Shown: piece after piece, positions 7,210 to 64,000 of the stretch
Layout of the letters: every line of letters begins with the position of its first letter
Numbering within the stretch: the first letter of the stretch is position 1
Assembly (NCBI GenBank): GCA_050084515.1
Contig: CM114271.1
Coordinates: 32,426,001-32,490,000 of the forward strand
Reading direction: 5' to 3'
Length of the DNA: 64,000 nt
DNA from: Blasia pusilla
Lineage: Eukaryota
Notes under the pieces: generated by a model
The model's input: only the letters and a program-made list of their open reading frames with translations
The model's database searches: none
What the model was told of the DNA's origin: nothing
Translations under genes and position numbers: made by a program

Positions 7210-7316
7210 TGTCGTACGAATCCACATCGTCATACAACATACATCGCTGACATACCATACTCACATACATACATAACATAGATGAGAGCATCCACAAACA
7301 TAAGTGTACCACAACT
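7210..7316 (-). repeat. Repeat Y2 (107 bp), forming the 3' terminus of copy 1
   Basis: Direct repeat of 7685-7791. Ends ...TACGACA against host flank. Confidence 0.93.
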
Positions 7317-7682
7317 GAAATCCGTGGAAGACCTACTGTCATAAAACATGTATAGAATCACATACAATCGAGCCAAACCCACTCCACGATGGGAGAATCT
7401 AGGTCGAAGCTTGCGGGAAACACCATAGCCAAGAGCTCTACTCACTACCAAGGCTAACTCCCAACGCAACAGGCTCAACTCAAAGAACTAACTGTTCTTT
7501 GAGTGCACTCCACCTTATATCCTCCAACCTAAGAGCGGGCCTAATGGAAAAGTCACCCCCAATTGAGTAACCCCCAACCCTATGTATGAAACTGCATCTC
7601 TACCTAGCCACTACGGTCCTACATAAGGTATGGCCTCTACTAGCACACTATACTCTACGACATAATCCGTATGGTCATGACA
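7316..7682 (-). repeat. Second copy X2 (367 bp) of the terminal repeat, sandwiched between Y1 and Y2
   Basis: Near-identical to 14989-15356. In element sense it is preceded by Y1 plus GC and followed by Y2. Confidence 0.95.
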
Positions 7683-7684
7683 GC

Positions 7685-7791
7685 TGTCGTGCGAATCCGA
7701 TTCGTCATACAACATACATCGCTGACATACCATACTCACATACATACATAACATAGACGAGAGCATCCACAAACATAAGTGTACCACAACT
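7685..7791 (-). repeat. Repeat Y1 (107 bp), immediately after the PPT
   Basis: Direct repeat of 7210-7316 (5 mismatches by eye). In element sense it ends ...GCACGACA, followed by GC and then the TGTCATG start of X2. Confidence 0.93.
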
Positions 7792-7800
7792 CGCCCCCCT
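7792..7800 (-). promoter_or_regulatory. Polypurine-tract-like plus-strand primer (AGGGGGGCG)
   Basis: G-rich run directly abutting the start of Y1 and downstream of the pol stop codon. No comparable tract abuts X2. Confidence 0.65.
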
Positions 7801-7963
7801 AACTCGCGGTTAGGTCCCTCTAACTCCCATGTAGCCCTATACATCTACTACATGCTATACACCTTCGTGGGTGCACGAATCAGAAGGCGGGGTGCTAGGT
7901 TGCCCCATCGTTAGTCGTACATCTGTAATCCATATCATGCAAAGATCAAGTCATCTACCTCTC

Positions 7964-8545
7964 CTAAGTACATTGAGGACAAACCCACCTTCCAGTAGGA
8001 ACAACATCCATACGTGGAGTCAAACACATCATGTGCCAACCCCTAGAACACCGATCACACACCAACATACGGGTTGCGTTACCAGCAGACCCACACAACA
8101 TGCACCTCAAGCAAGCACGTATCATGGCTAAGCTTGGGTTAACAATACCATCCATATTTGGAAGATGATATGGTGCACAATTACGCACATGGTCCTTCCA
8201 AACAACTCCATCACGATCCTCCAACATGAGAACTCCAGAAGTTAACACCTCGTGCACTCGTAAAATAGTGCGGCCTACTGTCACATCCAACATTGTCGGT
8301 GCAATCTGCTGCAAATAGACATAGTCCCCTACATGGAACCTAGGAATCGATGGTCGATAACCTCCACCCTGAATGGTTGCATACCGCAACGTATCCCTGT
8401 GTTGAGCAATGGCAAGATTCTCAAAGGCTGTTGGCATAACTCTCCGAAAGAGCTCTCCCCGTTGAGAACACACTCTCATCCACATCTGTGAGTGATCAAG
8501 GTTCACCACCTCACTAGACTCCCGACGAATTGCTGCGAGCAAGTG
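7964..8545 (-). pseudogene. Integrase C-terminal region (SH3-like segment) ending in a PHD finger
   Basis: FHVGDYVYL...HVRNCAPY resembles an integrase CTD. It is followed by the C4-H-C3 pattern CMLC...CDRC...WHMMC...WVCPQC at 8104-7967. The first part matches copy 2 at about 63810-64000. Confidence 0.85.
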
Positions 8546-9404
8546 ACTCCCAAACCACCTGGATAGATCACATGACCCAAGTACTCAACATCCTCATGGA
8601 AGAACTTACACTTTCCTGGATGCAAACGTAGACCATGAGCTTTCAACCGCTCAAACACCATCTGCAAATGTATCTGATGCTCCTCCACCGTGTTACTGAA
8701 CACCAAGATATCATCAATGTAACACGGAACAAAATCCAACCCTGCTAGGATCCTATCCATAACTCTCTAAAACTCGGCAGGTGCATTCTTCAACCCAAAG
8801 GGTAAGAATTTCCACTGGTACAAACAATCCTTGCCATGAGAGTTGACACCCCAAAATGTTGTCTTGGCCTGTCACTCTCCCGAATCGGAAATTGATGGTA
8901 TCCTGCCCGAAGATCCAAAGTACTGAAAATCTTTGCATGTCCCATCACATCAAAGATCTCCTCAGGTGTAGGCATGGCATACCTATTGGCCTTGGTTTGC
9001 CGATTGAGAGGACGGTAATCTCCACACATCTGCCTATCCGTGTAGTTGCCATGCATATCCTTTTTAGCAGGTATGACAATGGCTGATGCATACTCTCCAT
9101 GTGACAACTCCACTAATCCAGCCTCCAAAAGGTCCAACGTCCTACTCTGAATCAGGTCCCTCTCCATATCACTATATCGGTAGGGACGACGGAAGATTGG
9201 CGTATCACTAGCCAAATCAATCCGTATACTGGGTCCAATCAGAGAACCCAACTCCTTCATGCTAAAGGCAAAACAACTCCTATAAGCACGTAGGAATTGT
9301 GTCAAGCGTCGTTTCTCACCTCTCGTAAGCTTGGGCCCAAGTAATGGCTCCCAAGTCTCCTCCACTGGCACACTAGAGGGAGAGGATGATGCCATTGGTC
9401 GCAC
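8546..9404 (-). pseudogene. Reverse transcriptase of copy 1 (C-terminally deleted)
   Basis: PIFRRPYRYS, CGDYRPLN, FSTLDLRAGYHQ, PFGLKNAPAEF, YIDDILVFS, KCKFF..VEYLGH: Ty3/gypsy RT motifs with one frameshift. Confidence 0.95.
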
Positions 9405-9639
9405 ATAACCCCCTCACAAGATGGTACACCCTTAGCTACACCATCATCTCGAGCAAATAACTCCTCCACCAAAGCATGAGCAACCAACTCCACATGCCCA
9501 CCATTACATCCCATTTACTCCAAGGATGCAAAATACTACTCTCCTCGCCCCACCGATGTCTCTCTTGCCCCGGTAGCCATCAAGCTCATTACAAGGGGTG
9601 GAAGACCCACAGACATAGTCCGAAGTTGATTTGCTCGCC

Positions 9640-10591
9640 ATACCAAGACTCAAAATCCAAGTCAAACAATTCAGGTCCATGGCCTGACCCAACACATGAC
9701 GTCGTGAAGCCTCAGAAATGGAAGCAACCGATGTCACACCAGTAGCAAATCCCATCACACGCTCTCTCTCATTAGCGTTAGGCTCCACCAACTGTCGCAC
9801 ATGAGAATCCCATACAAGCCCGGGACCACCTTCCTTGTATGCATGTGACGAGGGAAAAGTCACAAATGTGGGTAGTGCCATCCTAGGCTGGCCCACACGG
9901 TTCAACACTGCCATGGGTGACCCATCAATAACCCTCACCACCTGAGAAAGTCGCCCAATATCCAAGTTACTATCCACTGTAAGGCAAGGATCCCGCTGCA
10001 CTGCATCATATGCTCAGCGTAGAACCTCCCTAGGCAACAAGTTTGTCCACCACAAGCGTGGACGATGTGCACGCGAGGCAACTCGCGCTGCATCCAACAA
10101 CACCGCTGGTCCAATCCAAGACCGCATCTCATGAACACTCGCCATCATCCGGGTCCGAGCGTCACCCAACAATGAACATTCTCCAGAATGTAAGCTAGAG
10201 CACGTGTCTGATGAACCTGAAGATTTTGTAACACCCGTAACATCTCCCAAAACAATCGAGACCTAGGGTCGTGAAATCCCTCACCACGACCAGCACGTGT
10301 ATGACCCTGACATGGCCATCCAGAAATCACCAAATCCACAGGACCAACCCTCTCAAGGTCCTGCGCCCCCAACAATGCAATGTGTGACGGCAAAGCACGC
10401 TGGTACCCACGAATAGCTAATGACGGCAATAACTCAGGATATCTCCGCATCAACTGACCAATATGTCGGGATGAGACTCTCTGGGCCGTCTCATCTCGCT
10501 CCATATACACGTATCTCCGCACAGGAATACCGGCCTACAACACTGCAGCCAAACCACTGCTAATCCCACCAAAGAGATCTAACACACAAAT
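9640..10591 (-). pseudogene. DNMT3-like cytosine-5 DNA methyltransferase domain within pol (copy 1)
   Basis: Motif I VLDLFGGISSG, motif II ERD, motif IV VDLVISGWPCQG (PCQ 10315-10307), motif VI YILENV (ENV 10183-10175), motif VIII AHRPRLWWTNL, motifs IX-X ERERVMGF...RRHVLGQAMDL. The motif order is unpermuted. Two stops and one 1-bp frameshift are present. Confidence 0.92.
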
Positions 10592-10989
10592 GCCCTCCGG
10601 CGGATACTGCCATACAATGGGTGTAGTATCCAAAGGAGATAACCCAACTGGACCAGAAGTAGGAGTCCGTCGTGGGGCCTCCTCTTCCTCGTGAGGTATA
10701 AAAGCCTCACACCAAGCCTCCTGCACTAGGCCATCAGCCTCCTGCCATAGTGCACCACCTGAACTCCAAAGTGGCACATCCAATGATGAGGATGCCACTG
10801 CTGCAAAAATAGGGACCTCCTCATGCACAGGAGAATCCATAGCAAAAACATTACCCTCCAAAAAGTCTCCTGGCCAAGTGACTACTCCACTAAAACCAAC
10901 CAGAGATGCTAACACTGTTGGGGAAGACCCTCCTGGTCGAGCCCCATAAATAAATCTCACAGGAACTTGGCTCATACGTCCATCCCCGG

Positions 10990-11333
10990 ACTATCAACCA
11001 AGTCTATAAGACAGTCCAGTAATCCATCTGAAAACCCATCGGGTACAATAATGCTCCTCCAACTAGTACATCATACGACTCGGCTGATGTGACTACCGCA
11101 GATACTCCCAACCGAGAACTATCAGTCGCATGATCTGGTCTCAACTGTACAGAAAACTTCTCCCCTGTCATGAATTGAGACCTATCATTGGCTCCTCCAA
11201 GTGATGTTTGAATCTGGAATGGGCAAGGCTCAAGCTCTCACCTCCGAATACCCAAACCAATACATGCCGCCTTTCCCAACATCAAAGGTTGGGCACTAGA
11301 GTCTAACAAGACTCTATCTGGTCTATACACCTG
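10990..11333 (-). pseudogene. Aspartic protease domain of copy 1
   Basis: Reading through the TGA at 11334-11336 gives RVLLDSSAQPLMLG...YDVLVGG (retropepsin D(S/T)G-like site, here DSS, plus the DVLVG flap motif). It has an 8-bp deletion relative to copy 2. Confidence 0.8.
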
Positions 11334-13433
11334 TCATGTAGGACTCACCAATCGGAATATCCCACTCCGGTTGTCCAACATACATACACCAGGTGTAAGC
11401 CTCTCACGATCAATGGCTGGCCGGGCTAGTAATGCAACCATCTTCGCCGCTGTTGCCTGCCAAGTAGCACTGGTACTCAATGCTACACCTAACATAGAGG
11501 GTCGCTCCACCGCAACACCCTCATCCACCTCAGCACGTGTAGTAGTAACACCCCCACGTCCACACAACGTGGCTGCTAGCTGAAATACATGAGCTAAGTC
11601 AACTCCTAAAGCCATCAGCTCCATGGCCGAAAATAATGGGGATCCCAACACTGAAGTTGCCATCCGCAATACTGCATTGGATGTTGCATCCGTGTCTACT
11701 ACACGCGATGTAGATGCCTCAGTCCCCACTGTCGGCTCAATAGGCTGCATAGGAACCATGGATGGAGTCCTAAGCACCCCTGACAACAAGAATGAATGGG
11801 GAAGCCTAGCCTGCCTCCCAGCCTCATCCCTCTGTGGGTCCAACTCCATAGTAGCACCACGTGGCTCTGACGCTCGAGTGGCTCCTCTCGTAACTGCAGC
11901 CGATGCCTCAACCTGTGCTGCACTCGCCATATAAGAGAGATCATCCCCTCCATAAGAGGTGGAAGCCCCTGCTCCCAAACCTGATCTATGTTGGATACCA
12001 GCCATAGTAGCCAACTTCTGCTCCAACTGCTCAATCATGGCAGCCATAGATGACTCTGTCGTAGTGGTAGGGGTAGCCACCGTAGGCTCTCCAACCACCG
12101 GTCCACCTCTACCACCTCTACCACCTCGGCCTCTCGGAGCTACTCCACCGCGGCCGCGGCCTGATCTCAACTCTGGATGAAGATCAAAGCAACGCTCTAG
12201 AGGATGACCTGGTCTCCCGCAATGATCACACTGAGTTGGGGCCGACTGAGGCCCATCCTCCAAAGTCCGTCTCCCATCCTCTTGGGGACAAAACTTCCTA
12301 ACATGATCACCTCCACATGTCCAACATGATTGTCCTTGCTGCAGGGCAGCAAATGAAGGCAATGGTCTCTGCGCAAGTGTCCCTCTTGGACCAGACTGAG
12401 GTCGTGTGTACCCCCCACGACTCCCACTACTACTACCACCACCACTACTACGAGATTGTGAGGTGGGTTGCTGAACATGAGCACTAGTAGTTGTATCCCT
12501 ACTGAATGCGGATGTCACCACTCTCTCCTTCACCATGTTAAGCTCAATCTTCTCAGATAGAGCAAACACATGGGTCAATGTGGGTGAATCATCACTCATA
12601 AGAGTAGCATCACGTACCTTGCGGCGCAACTCTCTGTCCAAGATCCCATACCAAAATTGGACTGCCTAAGCCTCAGTCACACCCTGGGTAACTAAAATCA
12701 AGCGTCGCATACGAGTGTATGCCTCACGAAGACTCTCACCAGTCTTTCGCTCAAATTCTTGAAGACTCTTCAACTTCTCTGTCTTCACTCCCTGATAGTT
12801 TCTCTTCAACCTCTTGAAGAACTCTGCAACCGGGCTAAACGATGGTGGGGCACTAGTACCCCCACAGGTACCCCTACTGGTACCTCCACTAGTACCCCCA
12901 CTGGTACTCCGGCTCGTACTCGTACCACTCAACGTCGGGCTGGCTGGCATAGTAGGAGCACTACTACCAATACCACCATGGGTGATAGACACATAGCTTG
13001 GAGACCAATATTGTCTCCACGCCTCAATCTCAGCAACATGGTCCTTCCTAAACTCATGGTAATCATCCAAGTGTTGAAACAACCCCTTCCAAGCCAAGAA
13101 GGGTGTAAACAACGTGGCGTTCCGCAACATCTGCATATCACACCACGTATCAAACTCCTGCATGAAGTCCTCCAACTCAATGGTGCCCACTACACCCGAG
13201 TATCGTCGTGGGCCCTTCATGGCCCCATATATCCCGTCCATGTCCCAAATCAATGGAGCTGCAACACTCGATAACAACGTAGAAGACTCGGTGTTTGGAA
13301 CACCCTCGTCCTCCTCTTCATCAACCGTCGGAAGTGGAAAAGGTAGCCGATACCTAAATCCACTCCGTGTGAAAGCACCACTGTCCGCGCCACGGTCCCC
13401 AACCTGACCACCTGACAGCTCCGTGATGACCAA
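11334..13433 (-). pseudogene. gag: gag of copy 1 (capsid-like region, two CCHC-type zinc knuckles, RGG tract)
   Basis: ORFs 12666-13433 and 11334-12641 share one frame split by a TAG. Motifs CWTCGGDHVRKFC, CDHCGRPGHPLERC and RGRGG repeats are present. The first in-frame ATG is at 13241. Confidence 0.85.
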
Positions 13434-14977
13434 CGCCGATGCTGCACCACCACCAAATTATCACCACTAAGTAACCAAGTGACGTCGATGTCGCTATACT
13501 ATTCTTGCTCTACTAGCTATGGGTGTAGGCAACCTAACCTATCATCACCACAAGAAGCCTCCCACAATCTATTGGTCATCACTCCAACCTCATTACCGGT
13601 AGCACACAGGAATAACACTACTCTGGAAATCAGCGTCAACCTTAACAATGGGCCCGCAAGCAAGAAGCAACGATGGAGGGGGTCCAAACACAAGAAGTCC
13701 AACGAAAACCCTCCAATCGCAAATGGAAATCAAGATAACACAATCCACAAACGTGGCGCCCCCTGAATCCACAAAACCCACCACACAATTCTAACGCAAT
13801 AGCTACTCCGCCGCGGGTCGATGACGTGCTAGTCGAACTCGCACCACCTGAAAATATCACCTAAATGGAGAGGCTACACCGTACTATGCGCTAGAGGTCC
13901 ATCAACCAAAAACCTGAGATGCATAAAATGCCTAACACATCTCCGAACAGCACCAAATGAGCTACACCCGTGTGTACACTGGCATAGTTAAGAACTCAGC
14001 AGTTAAGCGTCTTCCAGGCAGAATAGCCCAAAGATGGGTGACCAGTTATGCAACACTCAAATCACAAATCCTGCAAAAACTGCCTCACGCCAAGCAAGCA
14101 AGCAAGCTTGCTTGCTTGCTCCTTGCTCCTTGCTCCGCCTGCAAAAGCTTGCTTGCTCCTTGCTCCTTGCTCCTTGCTCCGCCTCTCACGCCCACTCGCC
14201 ACCAGTTGCCTCGAAACGCCGAGAAATGCTCGAGACATGCCCCGTTCGCCCCATTCGCCATGCTTCGCTATGGAGAAAGGCCCAACCAGGGCGCCCCCAA
14301 CGAGATAGGCGTCTCCAACAATGAACGAGTCACCAACCAACCAGCCCCTCCGATCCGCTGTCCACCATAGCCAGATCTTGAACTAGTCCGCAAAATTTCG
14401 ATCAGTAATTACTTCACAAATCCTAGACCAAAATTGAATCTATTTCAACCAAAATTCAATTGACCACCATAGCTATCTCTCCACAAAAAATCAGCTACAA
14501 CCAAGCTCTGCACTCCGAGCTAAAAATCAGACAAACTTGTTGTCCATACTCCTCCAAAATCGCAAATCCGATAGCGCTTCCGCCTAGTTTCATGCACGCA
14601 GAAATCCACAACGCTCCACACACCCAAGCAGATAGCGTCACATGAGATCACAATACAAGTAGCAACAGGAACCTCTCACCCGATCTGGAGGAACTTCAAG
14701 AGAGCTTCCGCACTCCAAGCTCTCCACATCAGAAAACTCTCCACATCAGAAAATCGTCGAACACGAACCAGAATCTTCAATACTTGATAACTTCCAACTC
14801 CCTTGAAGAAATCTGGCGATCTAAAGCGCGTTGGAAATCTCTCAGCAAGGCGCTTCTTTCCCAACCAACCACGCACCAGATTCACACCTCCAACATAGGC
14901 CACAAGCCACAAACATCCACGGCTGACTACACAATCAGCCCTAACCAGATCCTAGTGATCCACAATCGATCTACGTC

Positions 14978-14989
14978 AGTTCTTTGAGT
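14978..14989 (-). promoter_or_regulatory. Primer-binding site complementary to the predicted RNA 5' end (self-priming type)
   Basis: ACTCAAAGAACT overlaps the last base of X1. It is the exact reverse complement of AGTTCTTTGAGT at 15162-15151, which starts 30 nt after TATAAG. It lacks the TGG start of tRNA-type sites. Confidence 0.8.
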
Positions 14990-15356
14990 GAAATCCGTGA
15001 AAGACCTACTGTCATAAAACATGTATAGAATCACATACAATCGAGCCAAACCCACTCCACGATGGGAGAATCTAGGTCGAAGCTTGCGGGAAACACCATA
15101 GCCAAGAGCTCTACTCACTACCAAGGCTAACTCCCAACGCAACAGGCTCAACTCAAAGAACTAACTGTTCTTTGAGTGCACTCCACCTTATATCCTCCAA
15201 CCCAAGAGCGGGCCCTAATGGAAAAGTCACCCCCAACTGAGTAACCCCCAACCCTATGTATGAAACTGCATCTCTACCTAGCCACTACGGTCCTACGTAA
15301 GGTATGGCCTCTACTAGCACACTATACTCTACGACATAATCCGTATGGTCATGACA
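14989..15356 (-). repeat. 5' terminal repeat X1 (368 bp, TG...CA) of copy 1
   Basis: Direct repeat of 7316-7682; by eye 4 substitutions and one 1-bp indel. Contains TATAAG at 15192-15187. Confidence 0.95.
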
Positions 15357-15653
15357 GGTTTGCATCACTCTAACAATGGCATGTGAGCATGAAATAAATA
15401 GCCCATAGGAGAATAAGGCCTCGGAGGCTGTAGACCCTAGAATGCAGGTCGCCTCTTTATCAGTGGCTGTTGTGAGCAAGATCCTAATTGTCTAAAGGAA
15501 AAAAAAGAATATGGGAGCGTTCAAAAAATTGAAATGTCATCATTACACGACCCCACAACCTAAGAGTCGTCGTAAAGAATCAGCACAAAGAACTCAAAGG
15601 ACCTAAAATCTAAACCTCCCACAAAGCTAAAATGACTCGTGTCAATTTCCAAC

Positions 15654-16030
15654 TAAGGTTGCACGCGGACAAAGTCCATATCCGCGGACTTATAGCCGTT
15701 CTGAGGACAGACATGTTTGTACGTGCCTAGGTGCGGGCTCCTCAAGCCCGCATACCTGCGGCCCGCACTCGGGCCCGCACCACCTTAGCATTCCACCCTT
15801 GCTCGGGCAGTCCGCATCTCGTCCGGCACCCGTTTTTACCCCCAAGTTTGTAGCTCGCGTGCGGCCCTAGCCTGCCCGCCTTTGCCCAAGCCTAGCCCGC
15901 CGTTGCCTGTGCCGTAGCCTGCCAAAGAGGGCCGTGGCCCATCCATCCGAACAGCCACTCTCGAGTTGCCACGTGTAACCTTGGGACTTGTCCGTCAAAC
16001 CCGCGCTCTGCTTGTGTCTCGCAAACCCTA
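15654..16030. mobile_element. hAT-like non-autonomous element (MITE) related to 32406-32904
   Basis: Starts TAAGGTTGCACGCGGACAAAGTCC, similar to the reverse complement of the right end of 32406-32904. Ends ...TCTCGCAAACCCTA. Interior is GC-rich with GCCCG motifs. No clear TSD. Confidence 0.5.
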
Positions 16031-28272: not shown

Positions 28273-28796
28273 ATCCACTTTATTATAATAACAAGCCTCA
28301 ACGAGGACAAAATAAGGTAATGACAACTCAAAAGAGGGAGAATTAAAAAAATGCAAAAAGAAACTAGGAACTAGCCAACACAAACACCCACTCAACGCGT
28401 TACACAATTGATCACATGAAACAAATTTGACAAGAGTATTTGTGGTTGGTCAAACATGAACGGACGATGAGGGCGAGCGACCGCCACCGTTTCTACACGA
28501 CGTTTGAATGCCAAAGCTTGTGCACGTTATAAGGCCAATGAGATGCATTGCCGAAAATAAGTAGTGACTACACACAAAGAGAAGGATTATGAGAAGGGGC
28601 AAGGTCATGATTCTCAAGGGAATGGTGAGCATATGATTTGAGGAAAGTATTAAAAGATACATGTAAATGACCGAATACTTCCACTGTGAAAAGAGTAAAT
28701 CCATGGTTTGCATGTCTCACAGCATAACTGATTTCCTTGATTCTTGTTGTTGCTTCGGCCACTGAACCTTTAGTATGTGTGGCACGATACACCAAG
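28273..28796 (-). mobile_element. 5'-truncated copy of the CRE-like non-LTR element (RLE C-terminus and 3' UTR)
   Basis: Translation VYRATHTKGSVAEATTRIKEISYAVRHANHGFTLFTVEVFGHLHVSF parallels 50977-51537. It shares the 3' end AATAAAGTGGAT with the copy at 50850. Confidence 0.85.
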
Positions 28797-50849: not shown

Positions 50850-53800
50850 ATCCACTTTATTATAAAAGAAACCTCATAAGAGGACAAAGAAAGGTAATAA
50901 CAACTCAAAAGAGGAGTCAAAAAATGCATACAAGAATGCAAAAAGAAAATGGCAACAAGCCAACGTAGACACCGGCTCAACCGGCTACAAGATTGATAGT
51001 CTGAAACAAGTCTGACAAGAACACGAGTGGTTGGTCAGACGTGAATGGACGACGACGCGAGCGACCCCCCACCACCTCCGCACGACCTATCAATGCAAAG
51101 GCTTGTACACGTTGTAAGGCCACTGAGATGCATTGCCGAAAATAAGTAGTAACTACCGAGAGAGAAGGACTACGGGAAGGGGCAAGGTGATGGTTCTCGA
51201 GGGAGTGGTGAGCACATGTTTTCAGGAAAGTATCAAAAGACACATGTAAATGACCGAATACTTCCACTACAAAAGGAATAAATCCATCAGTCGCATGTCT
51301 CACAGAATAACTTAACTCCTTGATTCTTCCTGCAGCTTCGGCCGCCAAACCTTTGGTATGTGCGGCTCGACACACCAAGACAAAACGTGTTGGATCAACA
51401 ACCACCACATCACCTAGTGTCCGGAATCCACCTCGAGACATAACAAGATCCACTCTCCGACAAGAGGTTGCTTGTGTGGTTGAAGGTAGGACGTGGAGTT
51501 GCTCTTGCCCAAGGATGTATCCTGCAGTACGAGCCACCGATGCTACCGCCTCTCTTATGACGTCATGTGTGGCCGTTCGTTCTCCACCATGTGCACATCA
51601 GAGAATATGGATACCCTTGGCATCAATGGGATCCCCGCATACACAATTCGGCACACCTAAGAGAGAAGGATGGGGAAGTCCACGACGTAACCGCAAAGCT
51701 GTCAAGAATATACTTCGAGGAAGACGAAATGGAAGAATAAGAGGACTTTCGATAAGCCACGCCCCCGCTCTAGTACGCACACATGAACGTAGACGAGCTC
51801 GATTAGCGTCAGAGGATGCCTTGGAGAGAATGCTGGAAAAGTTTATTTTATGCATATTCTCGGAGATATGCTCTTGAAGTCGATCAAGCCCTTTTGTAGT
51901 CAATTGACTGAAAGGGGATATAATTGCTTGTGTAGCAAGAGGAAGAAGAGCTCCTGTAGATCTCAATTGTTGTTGAAATAACAAGTCTCCCTCCTCTACA
52001 TGGGCGATATGATCCATCAAGATAGGTGTATCTCCTTGGAGAAACCTTGAAGCCATAATTGGTGCTACCAATGCCCAACTCCCCAAAAAGTTTGCGGGAG
52101 CAGATGCGACTATGGAGGACAGTCCCACCCCTCCAAAAGAAATAGGCAAGATAGCTTGTCGTGAAGCAAAGACACCATCCTCTCCCTCAAAGGTATTTGG
52201 GCCAAGAAGTTGACCAAAAGTTGCCAAGATAGAAGCATCAAAAGAGGCCAACCGATGTAAGAACCTTGAAGTGGGAGGACAAGTGCGAAGAAGGTAGGAA
52301 GGACGTCGTAGAAAACATTTTGAGAGAATCCCATAAGCCACTTGGGGATCCCCTAGATGAGGTAACAAATGAAGTCATTCCACGTCTTTCAAAAGGGCCT
52401 CATCCAAGAACTTTGAGATATAGTCGATGAAGCCAATTGGGACCCCAAGAACTCTAACCCCTTCAATGTAGATGGGAAAATCAAGAGTAGGTGGGGTGAA
52501 TATTGAGGGAAGGCATGAAGGAGACCATACTCCACATTTACTAGGTTGGACTTTAAGGTTTAAGAAAGAGAGTTGCTCCACGGAATGGGTATAAGCAGGA
52601 ACCACTTCAGAAGGAGGACCTATAATGTGATTGTCATCAGCAATAGAAGGGAAAAGACAAGATGGAAATGCTTGCGCTGATGCTCGAAGGGCACGAAAAT
52701 GGGCAATGGCAAAGAGTGGGCCCCCCATGGGATCATCTTGACGTGTGCCACCAGTCGATTGTAGAATACTATATTCCCTAGAAGTAGCATGATGGGAATA
52801 GATAATGGGGATATCATAGGCATAGAAGGAGCCAACAAATGGAGTGAGGCTCGCAAGTTGTCCTCCTGCACAACGTAACTCCTCAAAGATGGCCGCACGA
52901 GAAACTGAATTGAATGCGCTAGCCATATCAACTTGAATCGCTACCCAATCTGGATGAATATCAAGAGTGGAGAAAATCCCATGCACCACAGCCTCACAAG
53001 GAGTTGCCACTCCAAATTGATGAGGAAATAAGTGGGCACTAAAGTGAGGACGAAATTGCAAGCATAGGGATCGACTAACCAAGCGGTATAAAACCTCTCC
53101 AATAGCCAAGGGGCGCACACCTGAAGGAGGCTTATCCATAGCCAACAAACGACAAGCCCCTAAGAGTCTAGAGATAGAGAATGGAAGACGACCTGTCGCC
53201 ATATGTGCACACACCTTATATAGAGAGACAAAGCCACTTGCTGAATCTGCTGGGATAAAGCAATCGCGGAGATGCTCAAAAACCATCCCTGATAGCCCGC
53301 TTGCTGATAAGCGAGGAGTATGCAGAAAAGCCCTTGAGAAAACCTCCAATTCAAGCTCCAAGTCAAGGTCCGTTGTATAGTCTTCCACAAAAGATGGAGC
53401 ATCGCCACTTGAAGGAGGATGAAGAGCTTCTAAGAGAGCCACTATTTCCGCACTTGGAACTGCCGGAGAAAGAGGACCCAATGCTCGAGTTGCACGTGAA
53501 AACTCACCAACCTGCCCCAAAAGTAGACTTCGTCGAAGGCGTTGTTTTATTGAAGGCCTCCCATGATTGGCATGTTGAGTGGGATGAGCCGCAGCTTAGG
53601 CCTCTGCTCAAAGTACATGCTCATTCTGAAGATTCTCCCAATCCCCAAACATAAAGCGTTGAATACGTGTGGAGGTTTCACGATGACCGTTGCACCACCC
53701 CTTGGAGGGAGGACTAAAACCCATTGTGGGAAGAGTAATAGGAGATACCAAGAATTTATATTTGTGGGGTCAGGCGGTAACCTTTCTAATGGTAAAAGCA

Positions 53801-55435: not shown

Positions 55436-55804
55436 TGTCATGACCATACGGATTATGTCGTAGAGTATGGTGTGCTGGTAGAGGCCATTCCTTATGTAGG
55501 ACCGAAGTGGCTTGGTAGAGATGCGGTTCCATACATAGGGTTGGGGGTTACTCACTTGGGGGTGACTTTCCCAGTAGGGCCCGCTCTTAGGTTGGAGGAT
55601 ATAAGGTGGCTTGCCCTCAAAGAACAGTCAGTTCTTTGAGTTGAGCTCATATGCGTTGGGAGTTAGCCTTGGTAGTGAGTAGAGCTCTTGGCTATGGTGT
55701 TTCCCGCAAGCTTCGACCTAGATTCTCCCATCGTGGAGTGGGTTTGGCTCGATTGTATGTGATTGTAAACGTGTTTTATGACAGAAGGTCTTTCATGCAT
55801 TTCA
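55436..55804 (+). repeat. 5' terminal repeat X1 of copy 2 (369 bp, TG...CA)
   Basis: Homologous to 14989-15356. TATAAG at 55600-55605. No Y sequence lies upstream. Confidence 0.92.
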
Positions 55805-55816
55805 CTCAAAGAACTG
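55804..55816 (+). promoter_or_regulatory. Self-priming type primer-binding site of copy 2
   Basis: ACTCAAAGAACTG is the reverse complement of CAGTTCTTTGAGT at 55629-55641. The A at 55630 is 30 nt after the TATA start. Confidence 0.8.
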
Positions 55817-57188
55817 GAGTAGATCGATGGTAGCTTCGATTGTAGATCAATAGGATCTGGTTAGGGTTGATTGTGTACTCAGCCGTGGATATTCGGGGCT
55901 TGTTGCCTATGTTGGAGGTGTGAATCAGGTGCGTGGTTGGTTGGGAAAGAAGCGCCTTGCTGAGAGCTTTCCAACGCGCTGTAGATCGCCGGATTTCGTG
56001 AAGGGAGTTGGAAGTTATCAAGCATTGAAGATTCTGGTTCGTGTTCTCGACAGTTTTCTGATGTGGAGAGCTTGGAGTGCGGAAGCTCTGTTGAAGTTCA
56101 TCCAGATCGGGTGAGAGGTTCCTATTGCTACTTGTATTGTGATCTCATGTGAAGCTATCTGCTCGAGTGCGTGGAGCGTTGCGGATTTCTGCGTGCATGA
56201 AACTTGGCGGAAGCGCTGTCGGATTTGCGGTTCTAGAGGTGTATGGACAACAAGTTTGTCTGATTTTTAGCTCGGAGTACGGAGCTTGGTTGTAGCTGAG
56301 TTTTTGTGGGGAGATATCTATGGTGGTCAATTGAATTTTGATCGAAACAGATTTGATTTCGGTCACGTATTTGTGAAGTAATTTCTGATCGAAATTTCGC
56401 GGACTAGCTCAAGGTCTGGCTATGGTGGACAGCGGATCGGAGGGGCTGGTTGGTTGGTGAGGCTTCGAGGCAACTCGTGGTAGCTCGGGGCGAGTGGGCG
56501 TGAGAGGCGGAGTAAGGAGCAAGGAGCAAGCAAGCAAGCTTGCTTGCTTGGGCGTGAGGCAATTTTTGCAGGATTTGGGATTTGAGTTTTGCATAATGGT
56601 CACCCATCTTTGGGCTATTCTCGCTGGAGGACGCTTAATCGCTGAGTTCTTAACTATGCAGGTGTCTCATGTTGTAGCTCATTTGGTCTTTGTTCGGAGA
56701 TGTGTTAGGCGCTTTATGCATCTCAGGTTTTTGGTTGATGTACCTCTAGCGCATAGTACGGTGTAGCCTCTCCATGCAGGTGATATTTTCAGGTGCTGAG
56801 AGTTCGACTAGTACGTCATCGACCCGCGGTGGAGTAGCTATTGCGTTAGAATTGTGTGGTGGGTTTTGTGGATTCAGGGGGCACCACGTTTGGTGGATTG
56901 TGTTACCTTGATTTCCATTTGCGGTTGGAGGGTTGTCGTTGGACTTCTGTGTTTGGATCCCCTCCATCGTGCTTCTTCTTGCTTGCGCCCATTGTTAGGG
57001 TTGACGCTGATTTCGAGTAGTGTTACCTGTGTGCTCCGATAGTGGGGCTGCAGTGATGACCCGTAGACCGTGGGAGGCTTCTTGTAGTGATGAGAGGTTA
57101 GATTGCCTACACCCATAGCTAGTAGAGCTACAATAGTAGAGCGACATCGACGTCACTTGGGTAATTTGGTGGTGGTGCGGCATCGGCA

Positions 57189-59691
57189 TTGGTCATCACG
57201 GAGCTGTCGGGTGGTTTGGTTGGGGACCGTGGTGCGGACAGTGGTGGTTTCACACGGAGTGGATTTAGGTATCGGCTACCTTTTCCACTTCCGACGGTTG
57301 ATGAAGAGGAGGATCAGGGTGTTCCAAACACCGAGTCTTCTACGTTGTTATCGAGTGTTGCAGCTCCATTGATTTGGGACATGGACGGTGGATATGGGGC
57401 CATGAAGGGCCCACTAACGATACTCGGTGCAAGTGGGCACCATTGAGTTGGAGGACTTCATGCAGGAGTTTGATACGTGGTGTGATATGCAGATGTTGCG
57501 GAACGCCACGTTGTTTACACCCTTCTTGGCTTGGAAGGGGTTGTTTCAGCACTTGGAAGGACCACCCATGGATGATTACCATGAGTTTAGGAAGGACCAT
57601 GTTGCTGAGATTGAGGCATGGAGACAATATTGGTCTCCAGGCTATGTGTCTATCACCCATGGTGGTATTGGTAGTAGTGCTCCTACTATGTCAGCCAGCC
57701 CGACGTTGAGTGGTACGAGTACGAGCCGGAGTGGGGTACCAGTGGAGGTACTAGTGGGGTACTAGTGGAGGTACTAGTGCCCCACCATCGCTCGATCCGT
57801 TGCGAGTTCTTCAAGAGGTTGAAGAAGAACTATCAGGGAGTGAAGACGGAGAATTTGAGGAATCTTCAGGACTTTGAGCGAAAGACTGGTGAGAGTCTTC
57901 GTGAGGCATACACTCGTATGCGACGCTTGATTTAAGTTACCCAGGGTGTGACTGAGGATCAGGCAGTCCAATTTTGGTACGGGATCTCGGACAGAGATTT
58001 GCGCCGTAGGGTACGTGATGCTACTCTTATGAGTGATGATTCACCCACATTGACCCATGTGTTTGCTTTATCTGAGAAGATTGAGCTTAACATGGTGAAG
58101 GAGAGAGTGGTGACATCCGCATTCAGTAGGGATACAACTACTACTTCTCGTGTTTAGCCGCCCACCTCACAGTCTCGTAGTAGTGGTGGTGGTAGTAGTA
58201 GTGGGAGTCGTGGGGGGTACACGCATTTCACTCAAAGAACTAGGTCACCTCAGTCAAGTCCTAGAGGGACATTTGTGCAGAGACCATTGCCTTCATTTTC
58301 TGCCCCGCAGCAAGGACAGTCATGTTGGACATGTGGAGGTGATCATGTTAGGAAGTTTTTTCCCCAAGAGGATGGGAGACGGACTTTGGAGGATGGGCCT
58401 CAGTCGGCCCCAACTCAGTGTGATCATTGCGGGAGACTAGGTCATCCACGAGAGCGTTGCTTTGATCTTCATCCAGAGTTGAGATCAGGCCGTGGCCGTG
58501 GTGGAGTAGCTCCGAGAGGCCGAGGTGGTAGAGGTGGTAGGGGTGGTAGAGGTGGACCAGTGGTTGGAGAGCCTACGGTGGCTACCCCTACCACTACGAC
58601 AGAGTCATCTATGGCTGCCAAGGATTGAGCGTTGGAGCAGAAGTTGGCTACTATGGTCGGTATCCAAAGATAGATCAGTTCAGGGAGCAGGGGCTTCCAC
58701 CTCTTATGGAGGGGATTATCTCTCTTATATGGCGAAAAGATAGGTTGAGGCATCACCAGCAGCGATTCTGAGAGGAGCCACTCGGCGTCGAGCCACGTGG
58801 TGCTACTTGTGGAGTTGGACCCACAGAGGGGTGAGGTGGGAGGCAAAGCTAGGCTTCCCGGTCATTCTTGTTGTCGGGGTGCTTAGGACTCCATCCATGG
58901 TTCCTACGCGAGCCTATTGAGCCGACAGATGGGGATCGAGGCATCGACATCGCGTGTAGTAGGCACGGATGCAAAGCATCCAATGCAAGATTGCGGATGG
59001 CAACCGGTGTTGGGATCCCCTTTGTTTTCGCCACGGAGTCGATGGCTTTAGGAGTTGACTTAGCTCATGTATTTTGATTAGCGACCACGTTGTGTGAACG
59101 TGGGGTATTATGCTACACGTGTTGAGGTGGATGAGGGTGTCGCGGTGGAGCGATCCTCTATGTCGGGAGTAGCATTGAGTACCAGTGCTACTTGGTGCAA
59201 AGCAGCGCGCGGCGAAGATGGATGCATTACCAGCCCGGCCAGCCATTGATCGTGAGAGGCTTACACTTGGTGTATGTATGTTGGACAACCGGAGTGGGAT
59301 CTTCCGATTGGTGAGTCCTACAGACAGGGTGTATAGACCAGATAGAGTCTTGTTAGACTCGGTGCCCAACCTTGATGTTGGGAAAGGCGGCATGTATTGG
59401 TTTGGGTATTCGGAGGTCGAGCTTGAGCCTTACCCATTCCAGATTCAAACATCACTTGGAGGAGCCAATGATAGGTCTCAATTCATGACACGGGAGAAGT
59501 TTTTTGTACAGTTGAGACCAGATCATGCGACTGATAGCTCCCGGTTGGGAGTATCTGCGGTAGTCACATCAGCCGAGTCGTATGATGTACTAGTTGGAGG
59601 AGCAATATTGTACCCGATGGATTTTCAGATGGATTACTGGACTGAGACAGCGTCTTATAGACCAGGTTGGCAGTCCGGGATGGACGTATGA
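57189..59691 (+). pseudogene. gag: gag and protease of copy 2 (frameshifted)
   Basis: Fragments ELEDFMQEFDTWCD, CWTCGGDH, CDHCGRLGHPRERC, RVLLDS and YDVLVGG match copy 1. Confidence 0.85.
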
Positions 59692-60074
59692 GCCAAGTTC
59701 TGTGAGATTTATTTCTGGGGCTCGACCAGAGGGTCTTCCCAACAAGTGTTAGCATCTGTGGCTGGTTTTAGTGGAGTAGTCACTTGGCCAGGAGACTTTT
59801 TGAGGGTAATGTTTGCAATGGATTCTCCTGCGCATGAGGAGGAAGAGGAGGTCCCTATTTTTGCAGCAAAGTGGCATCCTCATCGTTGGATGTGCCACTT
59901 TGGAGTTCAGCGGTGCACTACGGCAGAGGCGTCGCCTAGTGCGGGAGAGGCTTGGTGTCGTGTTATACCTCACGAGGAAGAGGAGGCCCGGGGTGGACTC
60001 CTACTTCTTGCCCCTGTTAGGTTATCCCCTTTGGATACTACACCCATTGTATGGCAAAGTATCCGCCGGAGGGC

Positions 60075-61030
60075 ATTTGTGTGTTAGATCTCTTTGGTGG
60101 GATTAGCACTTTGGTTTTTGGCGCGATGTTGTAGGCCGGTATTCGTGTGCGGAGATACGTGTATGTGGAGCGAGATGAGACGGCCGAGAGAGTCTCATCC
60201 CGACATATTGGTCGATTGATGCGGAGGTATCTGAGTTGTTGCCGCCATCAGCTATTCGTGGGTACCGGCATGCTTTACCATCACACATTGCATTTGTTGG
60301 GCGCAGGACCTTGAGAGGGTTGGTCCTGTGGATTTGATGATTCTTTGGATGGCCATGTCGGGTCATACACGTCTTTGGTCGGGTGAGGGATTACATGACC
60401 CTAGGTCTCGATTGTTTTGGGAGATGTTACGGGTGTTACGACATCTTCAGTTCATCAGCAGTGCTCTAGCTTACATTCGTGAGAATGTTCCATTGTTGGG
60501 TGACACTCGGACCCGGATGATGGCGAGTGTTCATGAGGTGCGCTCTTGGATTGGACCAGCGGTGTTGTTGGATGCAGCGCGAGTTGGCTCGCGTGCACAT
60601 CGTCCACGCTTGTGGTGGACAAACTTGTTGCCTAGGGAGGTTCTACGTCAAGCATATGATGCTGTGCAGCGGGATCCTCGCCTTACAGTGGATAGTATCT
60701 TGGATACTGGGCGACTTTCCCAAGTGGTGAGGGTTATGGATCGGTCACCCATGGCAGTGGTGAACCGTGTGGGCCAGCCTAGGATGGCACTACCCACATT
60801 TGTGAGTTTTCCCTCGTCACATGCCTACAGGGAAGGTGGTCCGGGGCTTGTATGGGATTCTCATGTACGACAGTTGGTGGAGCCTAATGCTGATGAGAGA
60901 GAGCGTGCGATGGGATTTGCTAATGGTGTGACAGCGGTTGCTTCTATTTCTGAGGCTTCACGACGTCATGTGTTGGGTGAGGCCATGGACCTGAATTGTT
61001 TGACTTGGATTTTGAGTCTTGGTATGGCCG
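60075..61030 (+). pseudogene. DNMT3-like methyltransferase domain of copy 2
   Basis: ICVLDLFGGIS from 60075, GWPC (PC 60353-60358), ENV 60481-60489, RAHRPRLWWTNL and ERERAMGF...RRHVLGEAMDL. Confidence 0.92.
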
Positions 61031-61267
61031 AGCAACGTCGACTTCGGACTATGTCTGTGGGTCTTCCACCCCTTGTAATGAGCTCGATGGCTTTGGGGCC
61101 CGGTAGAGGCATCGGCTGGGGGCGAGGAGAGTAGTATTTTGCATCCTTGGAGTAGATGGGATGTAATGGTTGGGCATGTGGAGTTGGTTGCTCATGCTGG
61201 TGGAGGAGTTATTTGCTCAGATGATGGTAAGGGTGTACCATCTTGTGAGGGGGTTGCGTAGCAGCCA

Positions 61268-64000
61268 ATGGCATCATCCTCTCCCTCTAGTGTGCCAGTG
61301 GAGGAGACTTGGGAGCCATTACTTGGGCCCAAGCTTACAGGAGGTGAGAAACGACGCTTGACACAGTTCCTACGTGCTCATAGGAGTTGTTTTGCCTTTA
61401 GCATGAAGGAGTTGGGTTCTCTGGTTGGACCCGGTATACGGATTGATTTGGCTAGTGATACGCCAATCTTCCGTCATCCCTACCGATATAGTGATATGGA
61501 GAGGGACTTGATTCAGAGTAGGACGTTGGACCTTTTGGAGGCTGGATGAGTGGAGTTGTCGCATGGAGAGTATGCATCAGCCACTGTCATGCCTGCTAAA
61601 AAAGATATGCATGGCGACTACACGGATAGGCGGATGTGTGGAGATTACCGTCCTCTCAATCGGCAAACCAAGGCCGATAGGTATGCCATGCCTACGCCTG
61701 AGGAGATCTTTGATGTGGTGGGACAGGCAAAGATTTTCAGTACTTTGGATCTTCGGGCAGGATACCATCAATTTCCGATTCAGGAGAGTGACAGGCCAAG
61801 ACAACATTTTGGGGTGTCAACTCTCATGGCAAGGATTGTTTGTACCAGTGGAAATTCTTACCCTTTGGGTTGAAGAATGCACCTGCCGAGTTTCAGAGAG
61901 TTATGGATAGGATCCTAGCAGGGTTGGATTTTGTTCCGTGTTACATTGATGATATCTTGGTGTTCAGTAACACGGTGGAGGAGCATCAGATACATTTGCA
62001 GATGGTGTTTGAGCGGTTGAAAGCTCATGGTCTACGTTTCCATCCCGGAAAGTGTAAGTTCTTCCATGAGGATGTTGAGTACTTGGGTCATGTGATCTAT
62101 CCAGGTGGTTTGGGAGTTCAGCAAGCAAAGGTGGAGGCTATTGCACTTATTCCGCGTCCGATAGATGTGAGTAGAGTTCGAGCATTCATGGGATTGGCGA
62201 ACTACTATTGGAGGTATGTGAAGGGATTTAGTGCTATGGCAAAGTCTTTGAACCAATTGCTGAAATCAGATCAAGAGTGGCACTGGGGAGATGATCAGGA
62301 GAGAGCTTTTGTGGAGCTTAAGGCCTAGTTGGTGGCGGCGCCTATCTTGAGGAGACCTATCGAGGGCGCCTATTTGAGTTACGATGATTGGAGTAGGTTG
62401 GGACTTGGAGCGGTGTTGACACAACATGATGATGAGCACATGGAGTTTGTGGTGGCCTATGCAAGTCGTTCGAATAATACAGCGGAGTCGCGCTATAGTT
62501 CATATGAGGGAGAGTGCTTGGCAGTAGTGTGGGTTGTGGCACACTTTAGGTGTTACTTGTTTGGCACACTGATTTACCCTTACCCTTGTTTGATCACCGG
62601 CCGCTCAAGTGGTTGATGGAGTCGGACAAGCTTACAGGGAAGCTTGCACGGTGGGCTCTTATCTTACAGGAGTATGACTTCCAAGTGGTACATAGACCTG
62701 GAGTTGCCAACCTTGATGGTGATGGCTTGAGTAGGAACCCATGTACTAGCCAAGAGGATACAACTGGGGCTAGATGGCATGGCGAGGTTGATGAGGAGAT
62801 GGTGCCAGGTTAGCATGCATCCGCCTTTTTATGTTGGTTAGGGGTGGACTCTAGTATGGAGGATCACATGATATCTTACTCTAGTCAGAGGGTAGATGGC
62901 CAGCCTTCAGATCCTAAGGTTGGAGATGGTGGTACGGATCAGCGTGATATTCATGATGATGCGTTGGTGTTGGAGTTCCTACGGACCAAAGAGGGTGCCA
63001 GGCATAGTGAGTGCCAAGGAGCGAGACCGTGTTCTTCAACGTGCTAAGAGGTATCGATTGGAGGGAACACATATTTCTCGCGTGTGGGAGGATGGTAGAG
63101 TACGAGTAGTGCCACATTTGGCTCAGAGAGAGCGCATTGTGCGACATGCCCATGAGGAGTTGGGACATTTTGGGGTAAAGCGTACGTATAGCTTACTCCT
63201 TGGCCAATATTGGTGGCGTGGCATGCATACTCAGGTGCAGCAGTTGGTGTCACGTTGTATGGTTTGTGACCGGGTGAGGGCATCATTCAATGCCCCTACA
63301 CCACAATTACACCCCTTGCCTATTATGGGGTTGGTTTACCATTGGAGTGTGGACTTTTGCGGGACCGTTACCGTTGGTCGCATGCGACATCATCGATATG
63401 TGTTGGTGATGGTGGAGCACTTCTCCAAGTGGATTGAGTTGGTGGCATTACCGGACAAGGCAAGTGAGGGAACGGCATATGCGTTTCTGGATAGAGTGCT
63501 TAGTCATTTTGGTGCACCAGCTGAAGTGCTGACCGACCCGGGGTATAGAGTTTGTGGTGAGTTTGGTCTTGTGTGACAAGGCGTTGATTGATCATCGGAC
63601 CACGTCTCGAGAGCATCCGAGGCGGATGGTTTGGCTGAGCGTGTGGTTCAGACGGTGAAGAGGGCATTGCACAAGTATGGCCTACAGAAGGGGCATCTTG
63701 GAGACTGGGATATTCAGTTGCCATGGTTAGCCATGGGGTATAGGTTCAGTCGCCAAGCATCCTTGGCTTCCTTCTCACCTTATTTTCTGTTATACGGCCG
63801 AGATCCAGACTTGCCAAAGAAAGCAATTGTCGGGAGTCTAGTGAGGTGGTGAACCTTAATGACCCAAAGATGTGGATGAGGGTGTGTTCTCAGCGGGCGG
63901 AGCTCTTTCGGAGAGTTATGCCAACAACCTTTGAGAATCTTGCCATTGCTCAACACAGGGATACGTTGCGGTATGCAACCATTCGGGGTGGAGGTTATCG
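61268..64000 (+). pseudogene. pol: RT, RNase H and DDE integrase of copy 2 (frameshifted, cut by the window end)
   Basis: RT YIDD. RNase H DWSRLGLGAVL...ECLAVVW...DHRPL...DGLSR. Integrase HHCC (HEELGH...CMVC), WSVDF, VLTD, AERVVQTVK, SPYFLLYGRDP. The order RT-RH-INT is that of Ty3/gypsy. Confidence 0.95.

Follow-up and report, generated by a model that had tools for sequence, protein, structure and literature searches.

Two retrotransposon copies and their predicted primer sites

We analyzed a 64,000-nt stretch of the genome of Blasia pusilla (the window; GenBank assembly GCA_050084515.1, contig CM114271.1, positions 32,426,001 to 32,490,000), which contains two copies of one retrotransposon family on opposite strands. 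The family encodes, in this order, gag with a zinc knuckle, protease, a C5 DNA methylase, reverse transcriptase (RT), RNase H, integrase (H2C2 and rve domains), and a PHD finger, and both window copies are interrupted by stops. A sequence-only reading of the window had proposed that the family, like the fission yeast element Tf1, primes minus-strand DNA synthesis with the first nucleotides of its own RNA (here, the first 12) instead of with a tRNA. The features that bear on this proposal are the following (positions are those of the window).

14989..15356, minus strand: copy 1 A1, the 5' long repeat, TGTCATGACC...GGATTTCA (368 nt), with a promoter-like TATAAG, a hairpin, and an R-U5-like region
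15187..15192, minus strand: copy 1 TATAAG box (TATAA(A/G) in most of 33 aligned repeat copies)
15167..15177, minus strand: copy 1 5' arm of the hairpin (arm 1), ACTCAAAGAAC; nearly identical to the primer site and, according to prediction, situated for the most part upstream of the transcription start
15151..15162, minus strand: copy 1 proposed self-primer, AGTTCTTTGAGT, consisting of the last loop base and the 3' arm of the hairpin; exact complement of the primer site
14978..14989, minus strand: copy 1 predicted primer-binding site, ACTCAAAGAACT, adjoining the end of A1 (..GGATTTCA), with one A common to both
55436..55804, plus strand: copy 2 A1, the 5' long repeat, with TATAAG at 55600-55605, arm 1 at 55616-55625, and the self-primer complement at 55630-55641
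55804..55815, plus strand: copy 2 predicted primer-binding site, ACTCAAAGAACT

In both copies, the 12 bases abutting the 5' repeat (ACTCAAAGAACT) pair at 12 of 12 positions with AGTTCTTTGAGT inside the repeat; that is, the site adjoins the 5' repeat and is complementary to a promoter-downstream segment of the same repeat. Neither copy has TGG at the 5' edge of the site. The segment AGTTCTTTGAGT starts 30 nt past the T of TATAAG (the A of AGTT is base 31 if this T is base 1), and the predicted start-to-TATA spacing is 27 to 31 nt. The sequence-only reading had described the repeat end in just these terms and is confirmed for both copies, including the TATA box (55600) and the predicted start (55630) of copy 2; only the end of the copy 2 site, placed there at 55816, is corrected to 55815. 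The repeats of the two copies are 93% alike, and both 12-mers are nonetheless unchanged. With G-U pairs counted, the duplex is 2 to 3 bp longer than the 12-nt core, at 15 bp for copy 1 and 14 bp for copy 2.

Allowing at most 1 mismatch, the 12-nt motif occurs 8 times in the window (0.52 expected; 0 of 100 shuffles reached 8), and a perfect complement of at least 12 nt to the 16-nt segment at the repeat end was found in 1 of 5000 dinucleotide shuffles of the repeat. Two other placements were considered and rejected: a repeat end at ATGACA, 21 nt before the site (the identity between A1 and the second long repeat, A2, continues to ..TTTCA), and a tRNA-type site at TGGAGTAGATCG, which in copy 2 lies 11 nt downstream (the corresponding bases of copy 1 are TGACG).

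The hairpin and its conservation among relatives

A perfect 11-bp hairpin (ACTCAAAGAAC-AGTTA-GTTCTTTGAGT) has the complement of the primer site as its 3' arm and a sequence nearly identical to the site (11 of 12 bases) as its 5' arm. Its minimum free energy (MFE) is -16 kcal/mol in copy 1 (z = -3.0) and -17 kcal/mol in copy 2. When the leader was folded from the predicted start to 15 to 30 nt past the site, the MFE folds closed on the duplex of 5' end and site in copy 1 (W1), in copy 2 (W2), and in two metagenome relatives described below (loci L074 and L061), so that the pairing closes the predicted leader fold in all three lineages. The W1 leader fold still closes on that duplex with arm 1 included.

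The relatives were obtained from a scan of metagenome contigs, which returned 94 relatives, with 80 loci kept (L-numbers). BLAST with five repeat queries identified 40 instances of A in these loci and the window, and 33 main-family instances (at least 250 nt) were aligned. Recurrent in the aligned relatives are the TATA box, the hairpin (consensus GCTCAAAGAAC-ATA-GTTCTTTGAGT), and the site ACTCAAAGAACT, all kept in spite of differences from the window family in the loop, in the leader, and over much of the repeat. Both the site and an intact 12-nt 3' arm (arm 2) were present in 14 rows, representing 11 independent insertions (L020 = L021, L064 = L065, and L073 = L074). In these 11 A1 copies, the number of pairs out of 12 (Watson-Crick plus G-U) was 12, 12, 11, 10, 11, 12, 10, 11, 12, 12, and 12; as a control, arm 2 formed 7 to 8 pairs with the 12 nt that follow A2. 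Five A1 copies with a deleted hairpin were excluded from the count, as was L053, which has a duplication in the site (an 11-nt tandem duplication across the U5/primer-site boundary, L053:1545-1580).

The pairing extends beyond the core in other lineages as well, reaching 20 bp in L073/L074 and 19 bp in L003, where the extending bases (AACAT/ATGTT) are unlike those of the window copies. The 5' extension of the core is lineage specific: GTT/GAC in copy 1 (15 bp), TC/GG in copy 2 (14 bp), and AAGAACAT/ATGTTTTT in L073/L074 (20 bp). Separately, repeat positions 258-270 of L064 and L074 contain a second, 11-nt complement of the site (TTCTTTGAGTG), approximately 90 nt downstream of the first, which is absent from the window family.

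A sister family has a different pair of sequences. L061 (= L063, with L062 being its 3' half) encodes a methylase that is 49% identical to that of the window, and its repeat gave no BLAST alignment to main-family repeats. The repeat ends in ..CTTTTG and is followed by a site, AGTCACCAAAAG, that is unrelated to the main-family site. Its complement, TTTTTGGTGATT, starts 30 nt after TATAAT and forms 9 perfect pairs with the site (12 with G-U), with an extra A-U pair at the predicted CA start. At least 9 perfect pairs anywhere in the repeat were obtained in 158 of 5000 shuffles; because the position matches too, a chance match is less likely still. L061 also has a hairpin (10 bp; -10 kcal/mol), the 3' arm of which overlaps the complement. 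Across the two families, the design (i.e., a TATA box, a hairpin straddling the predicted start, and a 3' arm complementary to the site) is thus preserved with different sequences. No third family was recovered: the 5' ends of L068 and L070 gave tandem-repeat matches only, and the 5' repeats of L028 and L030 are truncated.

These comparisons bear on the idea that a host RNA anneals at the site, be it half a tRNA, an internal piece of one, or some other small RNA, and that the match within the repeat is secondary. Half-tRNA primers are reported for several plant copia lineages (PMC6317226), which lends this idea some plausibility. We consider it quite improbable here. The site lacks TGG, and an Rfam search of 14600-15500 returned no family at E ≤ 1. 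Two families have unrelated sites, each matched in its own repeat at an equal distance from its own TATA box, and lineage-specific bases extend the pairing past the core, which a fixed host RNA would not explain.

It is very improbable indeed that the arrangement has no function at all, with the site being a hairpin arm that was duplicated by palindrome-driven rearrangement and came to lie beside the repeat by chance. Arm 1 and the site are alike at 11 of 12 positions, palindromes do rearrange, and the hairpin is deleted in five copies, as this explanation would have it; it is opposed by the retention of the arrangement in 11 independent copies and in two sublineages with widely differing repeats and by its re-creation with a different sequence in the L061 family.

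Split repeats and the coding region

What the sequence-only reading had called a long terminal repeat (LTR) is part of a split repeat. Copy 1 has the order A1-coding-B1-A2-B2 (A-coding-B-A-B), in which B is a 107-nt sequence that flanks A2 on both sides. A1 and A2 of copy 1 are 98.6% identical over 369 nt. The remaining features of the two copies are as follows.

7791..7800, minus strand: copy 1 polypurine tract, AGGGGGGCGA, directly upstream of B1, not of A2
7685..7790, minus strand: copy 1 B1, the first short repeat, ending in ..CGACA; 95.3% identical to B2 over 107 nt
7316..7682, minus strand: copy 1 A2, the second long repeat
7210..7315, minus strand: copy 1 B2, the terminal short repeat, ending in ..CGACA
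7801..14977, minus strand: copy 1 internal region, with gag and its zinc knuckle, C5 DNA methylase, an RT fragment, and the PHD finger; broken by stops
55816..64000, plus strand: copy 2 internal region, with gag, methylase, RT, RNase H, and integrase; it leaves the window, and the 3' repeats lie outside
58223..58246, plus strand: insertion in copy 2 gag, 24 nt replacing 3, in frame

The element unit runs from the TG at the start of A1 to the CA at the end of B2 (i.e., TG..CA termini). Copy 1 is flanked by AACC (15360-15357) before A1 and by AACG (7209-7206) after B2, a match at three of four positions. A 4-bp target duplication is complete in L064 (CATA) and L066 (AATC) and matches at three of four positions in W1, L031, and L061; after L064 and L066, a duplication of CAAAC with CTGTC..ACGA termini was rejected in favor of 4 bp and TG..CA. 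The polypurine tract also precedes B1 in 7 further main-family loci (8 rows), as CTAGGGGGG(C/T)GA, with a variant in L055 and L075, and in the L061 family, as ATAGGGGGGTA. The L061 layout is likewise A-coding-B-A-B. None of 17 independent A1 copies is preceded by B, and their 5' flanks are unrelated; an LTR consisting of B+A in the genomic copy, or a nested insertion, was rejected on these grounds. Among 11 independent A2 copies with the end of B before them, 10 are followed by B and 1 runs off the contig. One of the 10 has a 19-nt insertion exactly at the A2/B2 joint (L059:10830-10860).

The two joints around A2 differ in kind. The B1/A2 joint, GACA-GC-TGTC, is a perfect 10-nt palindrome (with CA-AT-TG instead of CA-GC-TG in some copies). 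At the A2/B2 joint (..TTTCA/GTTGTGG..), the base before the primer site is fused to the base after the polypurine tract, making it an exact joint of U5 end and U3 start. This gives an independent fix on the start of minus-strand DNA, which coincides with the 5' edge of the 12-nt site to within a single ambiguous A.

This junction also speaks to the idea that the pairing serves another purpose (R-U5 closure for packaging, dimerization, strand transfer, or translation control) and that the true primer anneals nearby. The duplex does close the entire leader fold, and the extra pairs 5' of the core and the second complement in one subfamily look structural. We nevertheless find a purely structural role unlikely, given that the duplex ends within one base of the DNA-synthesis start fixed by the A2/B2 junction and that the interval between the repeat end and the leader offers no other candidate site (copy 2 has a TGG 11 nt downstream, but the corresponding bases of copy 1 are TGA).

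A tentative and rather doubtful possibility is that RT makes one set of ends and integrase uses another, the two being offset by the length of B. An LTR as delimited by the primer site and the polypurine tract would then consist of B+A, A2/B2 would be a tandem-LTR joint like that of a two-LTR circle, and the genomic termini (TGTC...GACA, with the 4-bp duplication) would sit at the internal palindrome CA-GC-TG. If so, a DDE integrase would routinely integrate an intermediate of the circle-junction type, or an end-joined one, opened at one specific palindrome, and self-priming would be gated by a start between the hairpin arms, with only the 5' copy of the primer sequence free.

The coding region identifies the class of the element. 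Pfam places the methylase (PF00145) between protease and RT, followed by RT, RNase H (an RNase H-like domain, PF17917/PF17919), Integrase_H2C2, and rve. At E ≤ 0.001, a PHD finger (PF00628) and no chromodomain were detected in the copy 1 C-terminal open reading frame and in the uninterrupted 1,047-amino-acid pol frame of L068. A tyrosine recombinase (PF00589) was not found by Pfam; rve and Integrase_H2C2 were found instead. The family is of the gypsy order and belongs with the Dnmt-bearing gypsy elements that have split repeats; it does not appear to be of the Tf1/sushi type. Relatives of the methylase are 65 to 78% identical in Marchantia polymorpha and Calypogeia fissa and 56 to 58% identical in Sphagnum. 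Where the source is given, the best 120 pol relatives come from liverworts, Klebsormidium, Closterium, and chlorophytes, i.e., from the green lineage, which is only a hint as to the clade; they include methylase-bearing proteins of Klebsormidium and Closterium.

Copy 1 lacks approximately 1.7 kb held by copy 2 (the RT C terminus, RNase H, and the integrase N terminus; 8534-8546 versus 62117-63822). Because this part is gone although the repeats are 98.6% alike, copy 1 appears to be a recently inserted, nonautonomous copy. L068:976-8226 contains two open frames, gag-protease-methylase (1,369 amino acids) and RT-RNase H-integrase-PHD (1,047 amino acids), with one in-frame stop between them. Elsewhere in the window, another pair of direct repeats (28344-28796 and 50929-51379; 76 to 84% alike and 22.6 kb apart) is unrelated to the retrotransposon family and may represent the LTRs of an older, larger element. 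The G+C content is 0.35 to 0.45 in the flanks versus approximately 0.50 in both copies, which have a strong strand-specific GC skew.

Probable self-priming and comparison with known systems

Element-sense transcription was examined with three raw-read RNA-seq runs bearing the same species label, which were aligned to 14500-15700 at 90% likeness. Each run gave 364 to 459 reads, nearly all with first mates on the plus strand, which means element-sense RNA given the usual stranded protocol. The depth was 0 upstream of 15360 and 108 to 190 in the first half of the repeat; it fell gradually to 20 to 31 at 14992-15032 and was 2 to 12 over the primer site and 2 to 25 in the leader. Reads in the first half came mostly from 3' copies (at 15356/15357, 48 to 78 per run per place had B1-side sequence as a loose end). 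Variants in the reads occurred in arm 1 and just 3' of the site, with none in the site or arm 2 among the variants listed. In all three runs, element-sense reads (4, 9, and 5) joined 15035 to 15323, corresponding to a 289-nt tandem duplication within the repeat; this join may represent a variant genomic copy.

The insertion in copy 2 gag is a possible trace of the process itself. Over its first 19 nt it is identical to the end of copy 2's own U5 (the last 7 nt) followed by the 12-nt site, and the match breaks off exactly where the site ends on its 3' side. It resembles the 3' end of plus-strand strong-stop DNA with a 12-nt primer, would also fit a primer to which 7 nt of minus-strand DNA had been added before synthesis aborted, and looks like the footprint of a template switch during reverse transcription. 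Being a single event, it is only suggestive.

Tf1-type self-priming of minus-strand synthesis is the best explanation for these data, and we judge it probable, because the hairpin arm is conserved, the arrangement recurs in 11 relatives, L061 has its own pair, and the leader fold closes in three lineages. The observations at its base are the complementarity at the start of DNA synthesis, the conservation, the replacement pair in the sister family, the RNase H domain, and sense transcription. The mechanism could run as follows. Transcription would start approximately 27 to 31 nt after the TATA box, between the hairpin arms, and the 5' end of the RNA would carry an unpartnered 3' arm (AGUUCUUUGAGU), possibly together with some bases of the loop. 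This free 5' end, for which the pairing is seen and the fold predicted, would fold back approximately 175 nt onto the site that abuts the 5' repeat end. By analogy with Tf1, cleavage of the RNA by the element's RNase H where the duplex ends would leave a 3' OH, from which synthesis would proceed into U5 and R. Plus-strand strong-stop DNA would copy the primer, so that the site would be rewritten from the RNA 5' end in each cycle and the pair would be kept complementary. Plus-strand DNA and the 3' copy of the repeat also contain arm 1, which could sequester the primer sequence there in the hairpin; the 3' copy would then be prevented from competing for the site.

Several points weigh against self-priming or limit it. 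The RNA-seq data neither support nor refute a start at 15162: the depth in the repeat is dominated by 3'-copy reads, and a start that feeds a leader of depth 2 to 25 stays below the reporting threshold. Cleavage of an RNA duplex by RNase H is assumed from Tf1. The hairpin is wholly or partly deleted in five A1 copies (L005, L006, L025, L031, and L059), and L065 and L064 have mismatches (10 of 12 pairs); these copies, and L018 mentioned below, are old and decayed, and they lend nothing to the case. Palindromes are often lost or rearranged. The window and 30 related loci contain no tRNA genes, which leaves room for a matching host tRNA half or other RNA. The covariation rests on two families plus sublineages, not on many: compensatory change across subfamilies, which the sequence-only reading had brought up, is seen in L061's own pair and in the lineage-specific duplex extensions, and L018, altered on both sides of one pair, has no compensation. 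Finally, the primer length is ambiguous, since the extended duplexes point to a start 3 to 8 nt upstream of AGTT and the gag footprint points to exactly 12 nt.

The sequence-only reading is therefore partly supported. Its proposed mechanism is also our best explanation, now on comparative grounds (the 11 copies, L061, and the A2/B2 junction). Its "first 12 nt" is uncertain: the duplex measures 14 to 15 bp in the two copies of the window and as much as 20 bp in L073/L074, versus a gag footprint that ends at 12. It had missed the hairpin to which the 3' arm belongs, the pairing beyond the 12-nt core, and the split repeat. "Tf1-style" is apt for the mechanism and not for the element, which has a PHD finger rather than a chromodomain, a DNA methylase, split repeats, and a 4-bp target duplication.

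To our knowledge, self-priming is experimentally known only from fission yeast elements. Tf1 and Tf2 of Schizosaccharomyces pombe, Tj1 of Schizosaccharomyces japonicus, and the Tf1/sushi group resemble the Blasia pusilla family in having a site next to the 5' repeat that is complementary to the start of their own transcript (predicted here), no tRNA-type site, and an RNase H domain. The Blasia pusilla family differs from Tf1/sushi elements in having a PHD finger and not a chromodomain, an added DNA methylase, and split repeats, and the best 120 pol relatives of the window element are all from green plants or algae where named. The target duplication is 4 bp here versus 5 bp in Tf1. In the Blasia pusilla family, moreover, the proposed self-primer forms one side of a hairpin with the predicted start between its arms, and priming is predicted from sequence. 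Because no chromodomain was found, we describe the family as working like Tf1, yet not as a shown member of the Tf1/sushi group. Self-priming is described as established for Tf1 and as an inference for Tj1 and the Tf1/sushi group (PMC4600332).

In plants, a survey predicted self-priming for 12% of LTR elements, comprising the Tcn1 clade (mosses and club mosses) and TAR copia elements (PMC6317226). These are like the present family in lacking a tRNA-type site and in that self-priming is predicted from sequence. An aromatic-cage chromodomain is reported for 95% of Tcn1 elements (PMC6317226), whereas the window family has none. The main text of that survey contains no mention of liverworts, methylases, or PHD fingers. 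A literature search of limited coverage returned no report of self-priming in this kind of element, and a similarly limited one on Marchantia Dnmt3/Gypsy retrotransposons returned nothing relevant, PMC11982613 included. The sequences compared add a further lineage in which the signature of self-priming is seen, with covariation at the level of families: gypsy elements of liverworts and relatives that carry a methylase and a PHD finger. These results suggest that self-priming in the green lineage is either older and wider than the Tf1/sushi connection implies or arose more than once. The hairpin straddling the predicted start further suggests a testable means of discriminating between the 5' and 3' copies of the primer sequence.

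Close in overall design is KnitGypsy-Dnmt3 of Klebsormidium nitens, which shares the gypsy domains, a Dnmt-type C5 methylase in the polyprotein, and the A-coding-B-A-B layout; the figure legends of PMC5890265 describe that layout for both SymbioDIRS-Dnmt3 and KnitGypsy-Dnmt3, and its main text contains neither "primer binding" nor "PHD". Klebsormidium nitens PF00145 proteins are 44 to 47% identical to the pol of L068, a relative of the window element. KnitGypsy-Dnmt3 differs in its host, the nearest named relatives of the window element being in liverworts.

Split direct repeats in the order A1 ... B1-A2-B2 are also described for the DIRS elements Ngaro, PAT, and VIPER (PMC6681497), and in this order Ngaro, PAT-like, and VIPER elements are like the present family. 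They encode a tyrosine recombinase, whereas the window element has a DDE integrase with H2C2, TG..CA termini, and 4-bp duplications. By its domains and layout, the family thus does not appear to be a DIRS element; it has the features of a Dnmt-bearing Gypsy element, i.e., a methylase in one polyprotein with a DDE integrase and the A-coding-B-A-B order. The combination of this order with a DDE integrase and a 4-bp duplication bears on whether tandem-LTR junctions can be substrates for integration, and the palindromic B/A joint together with the exact U5/U3 joint makes the element a natural test case.

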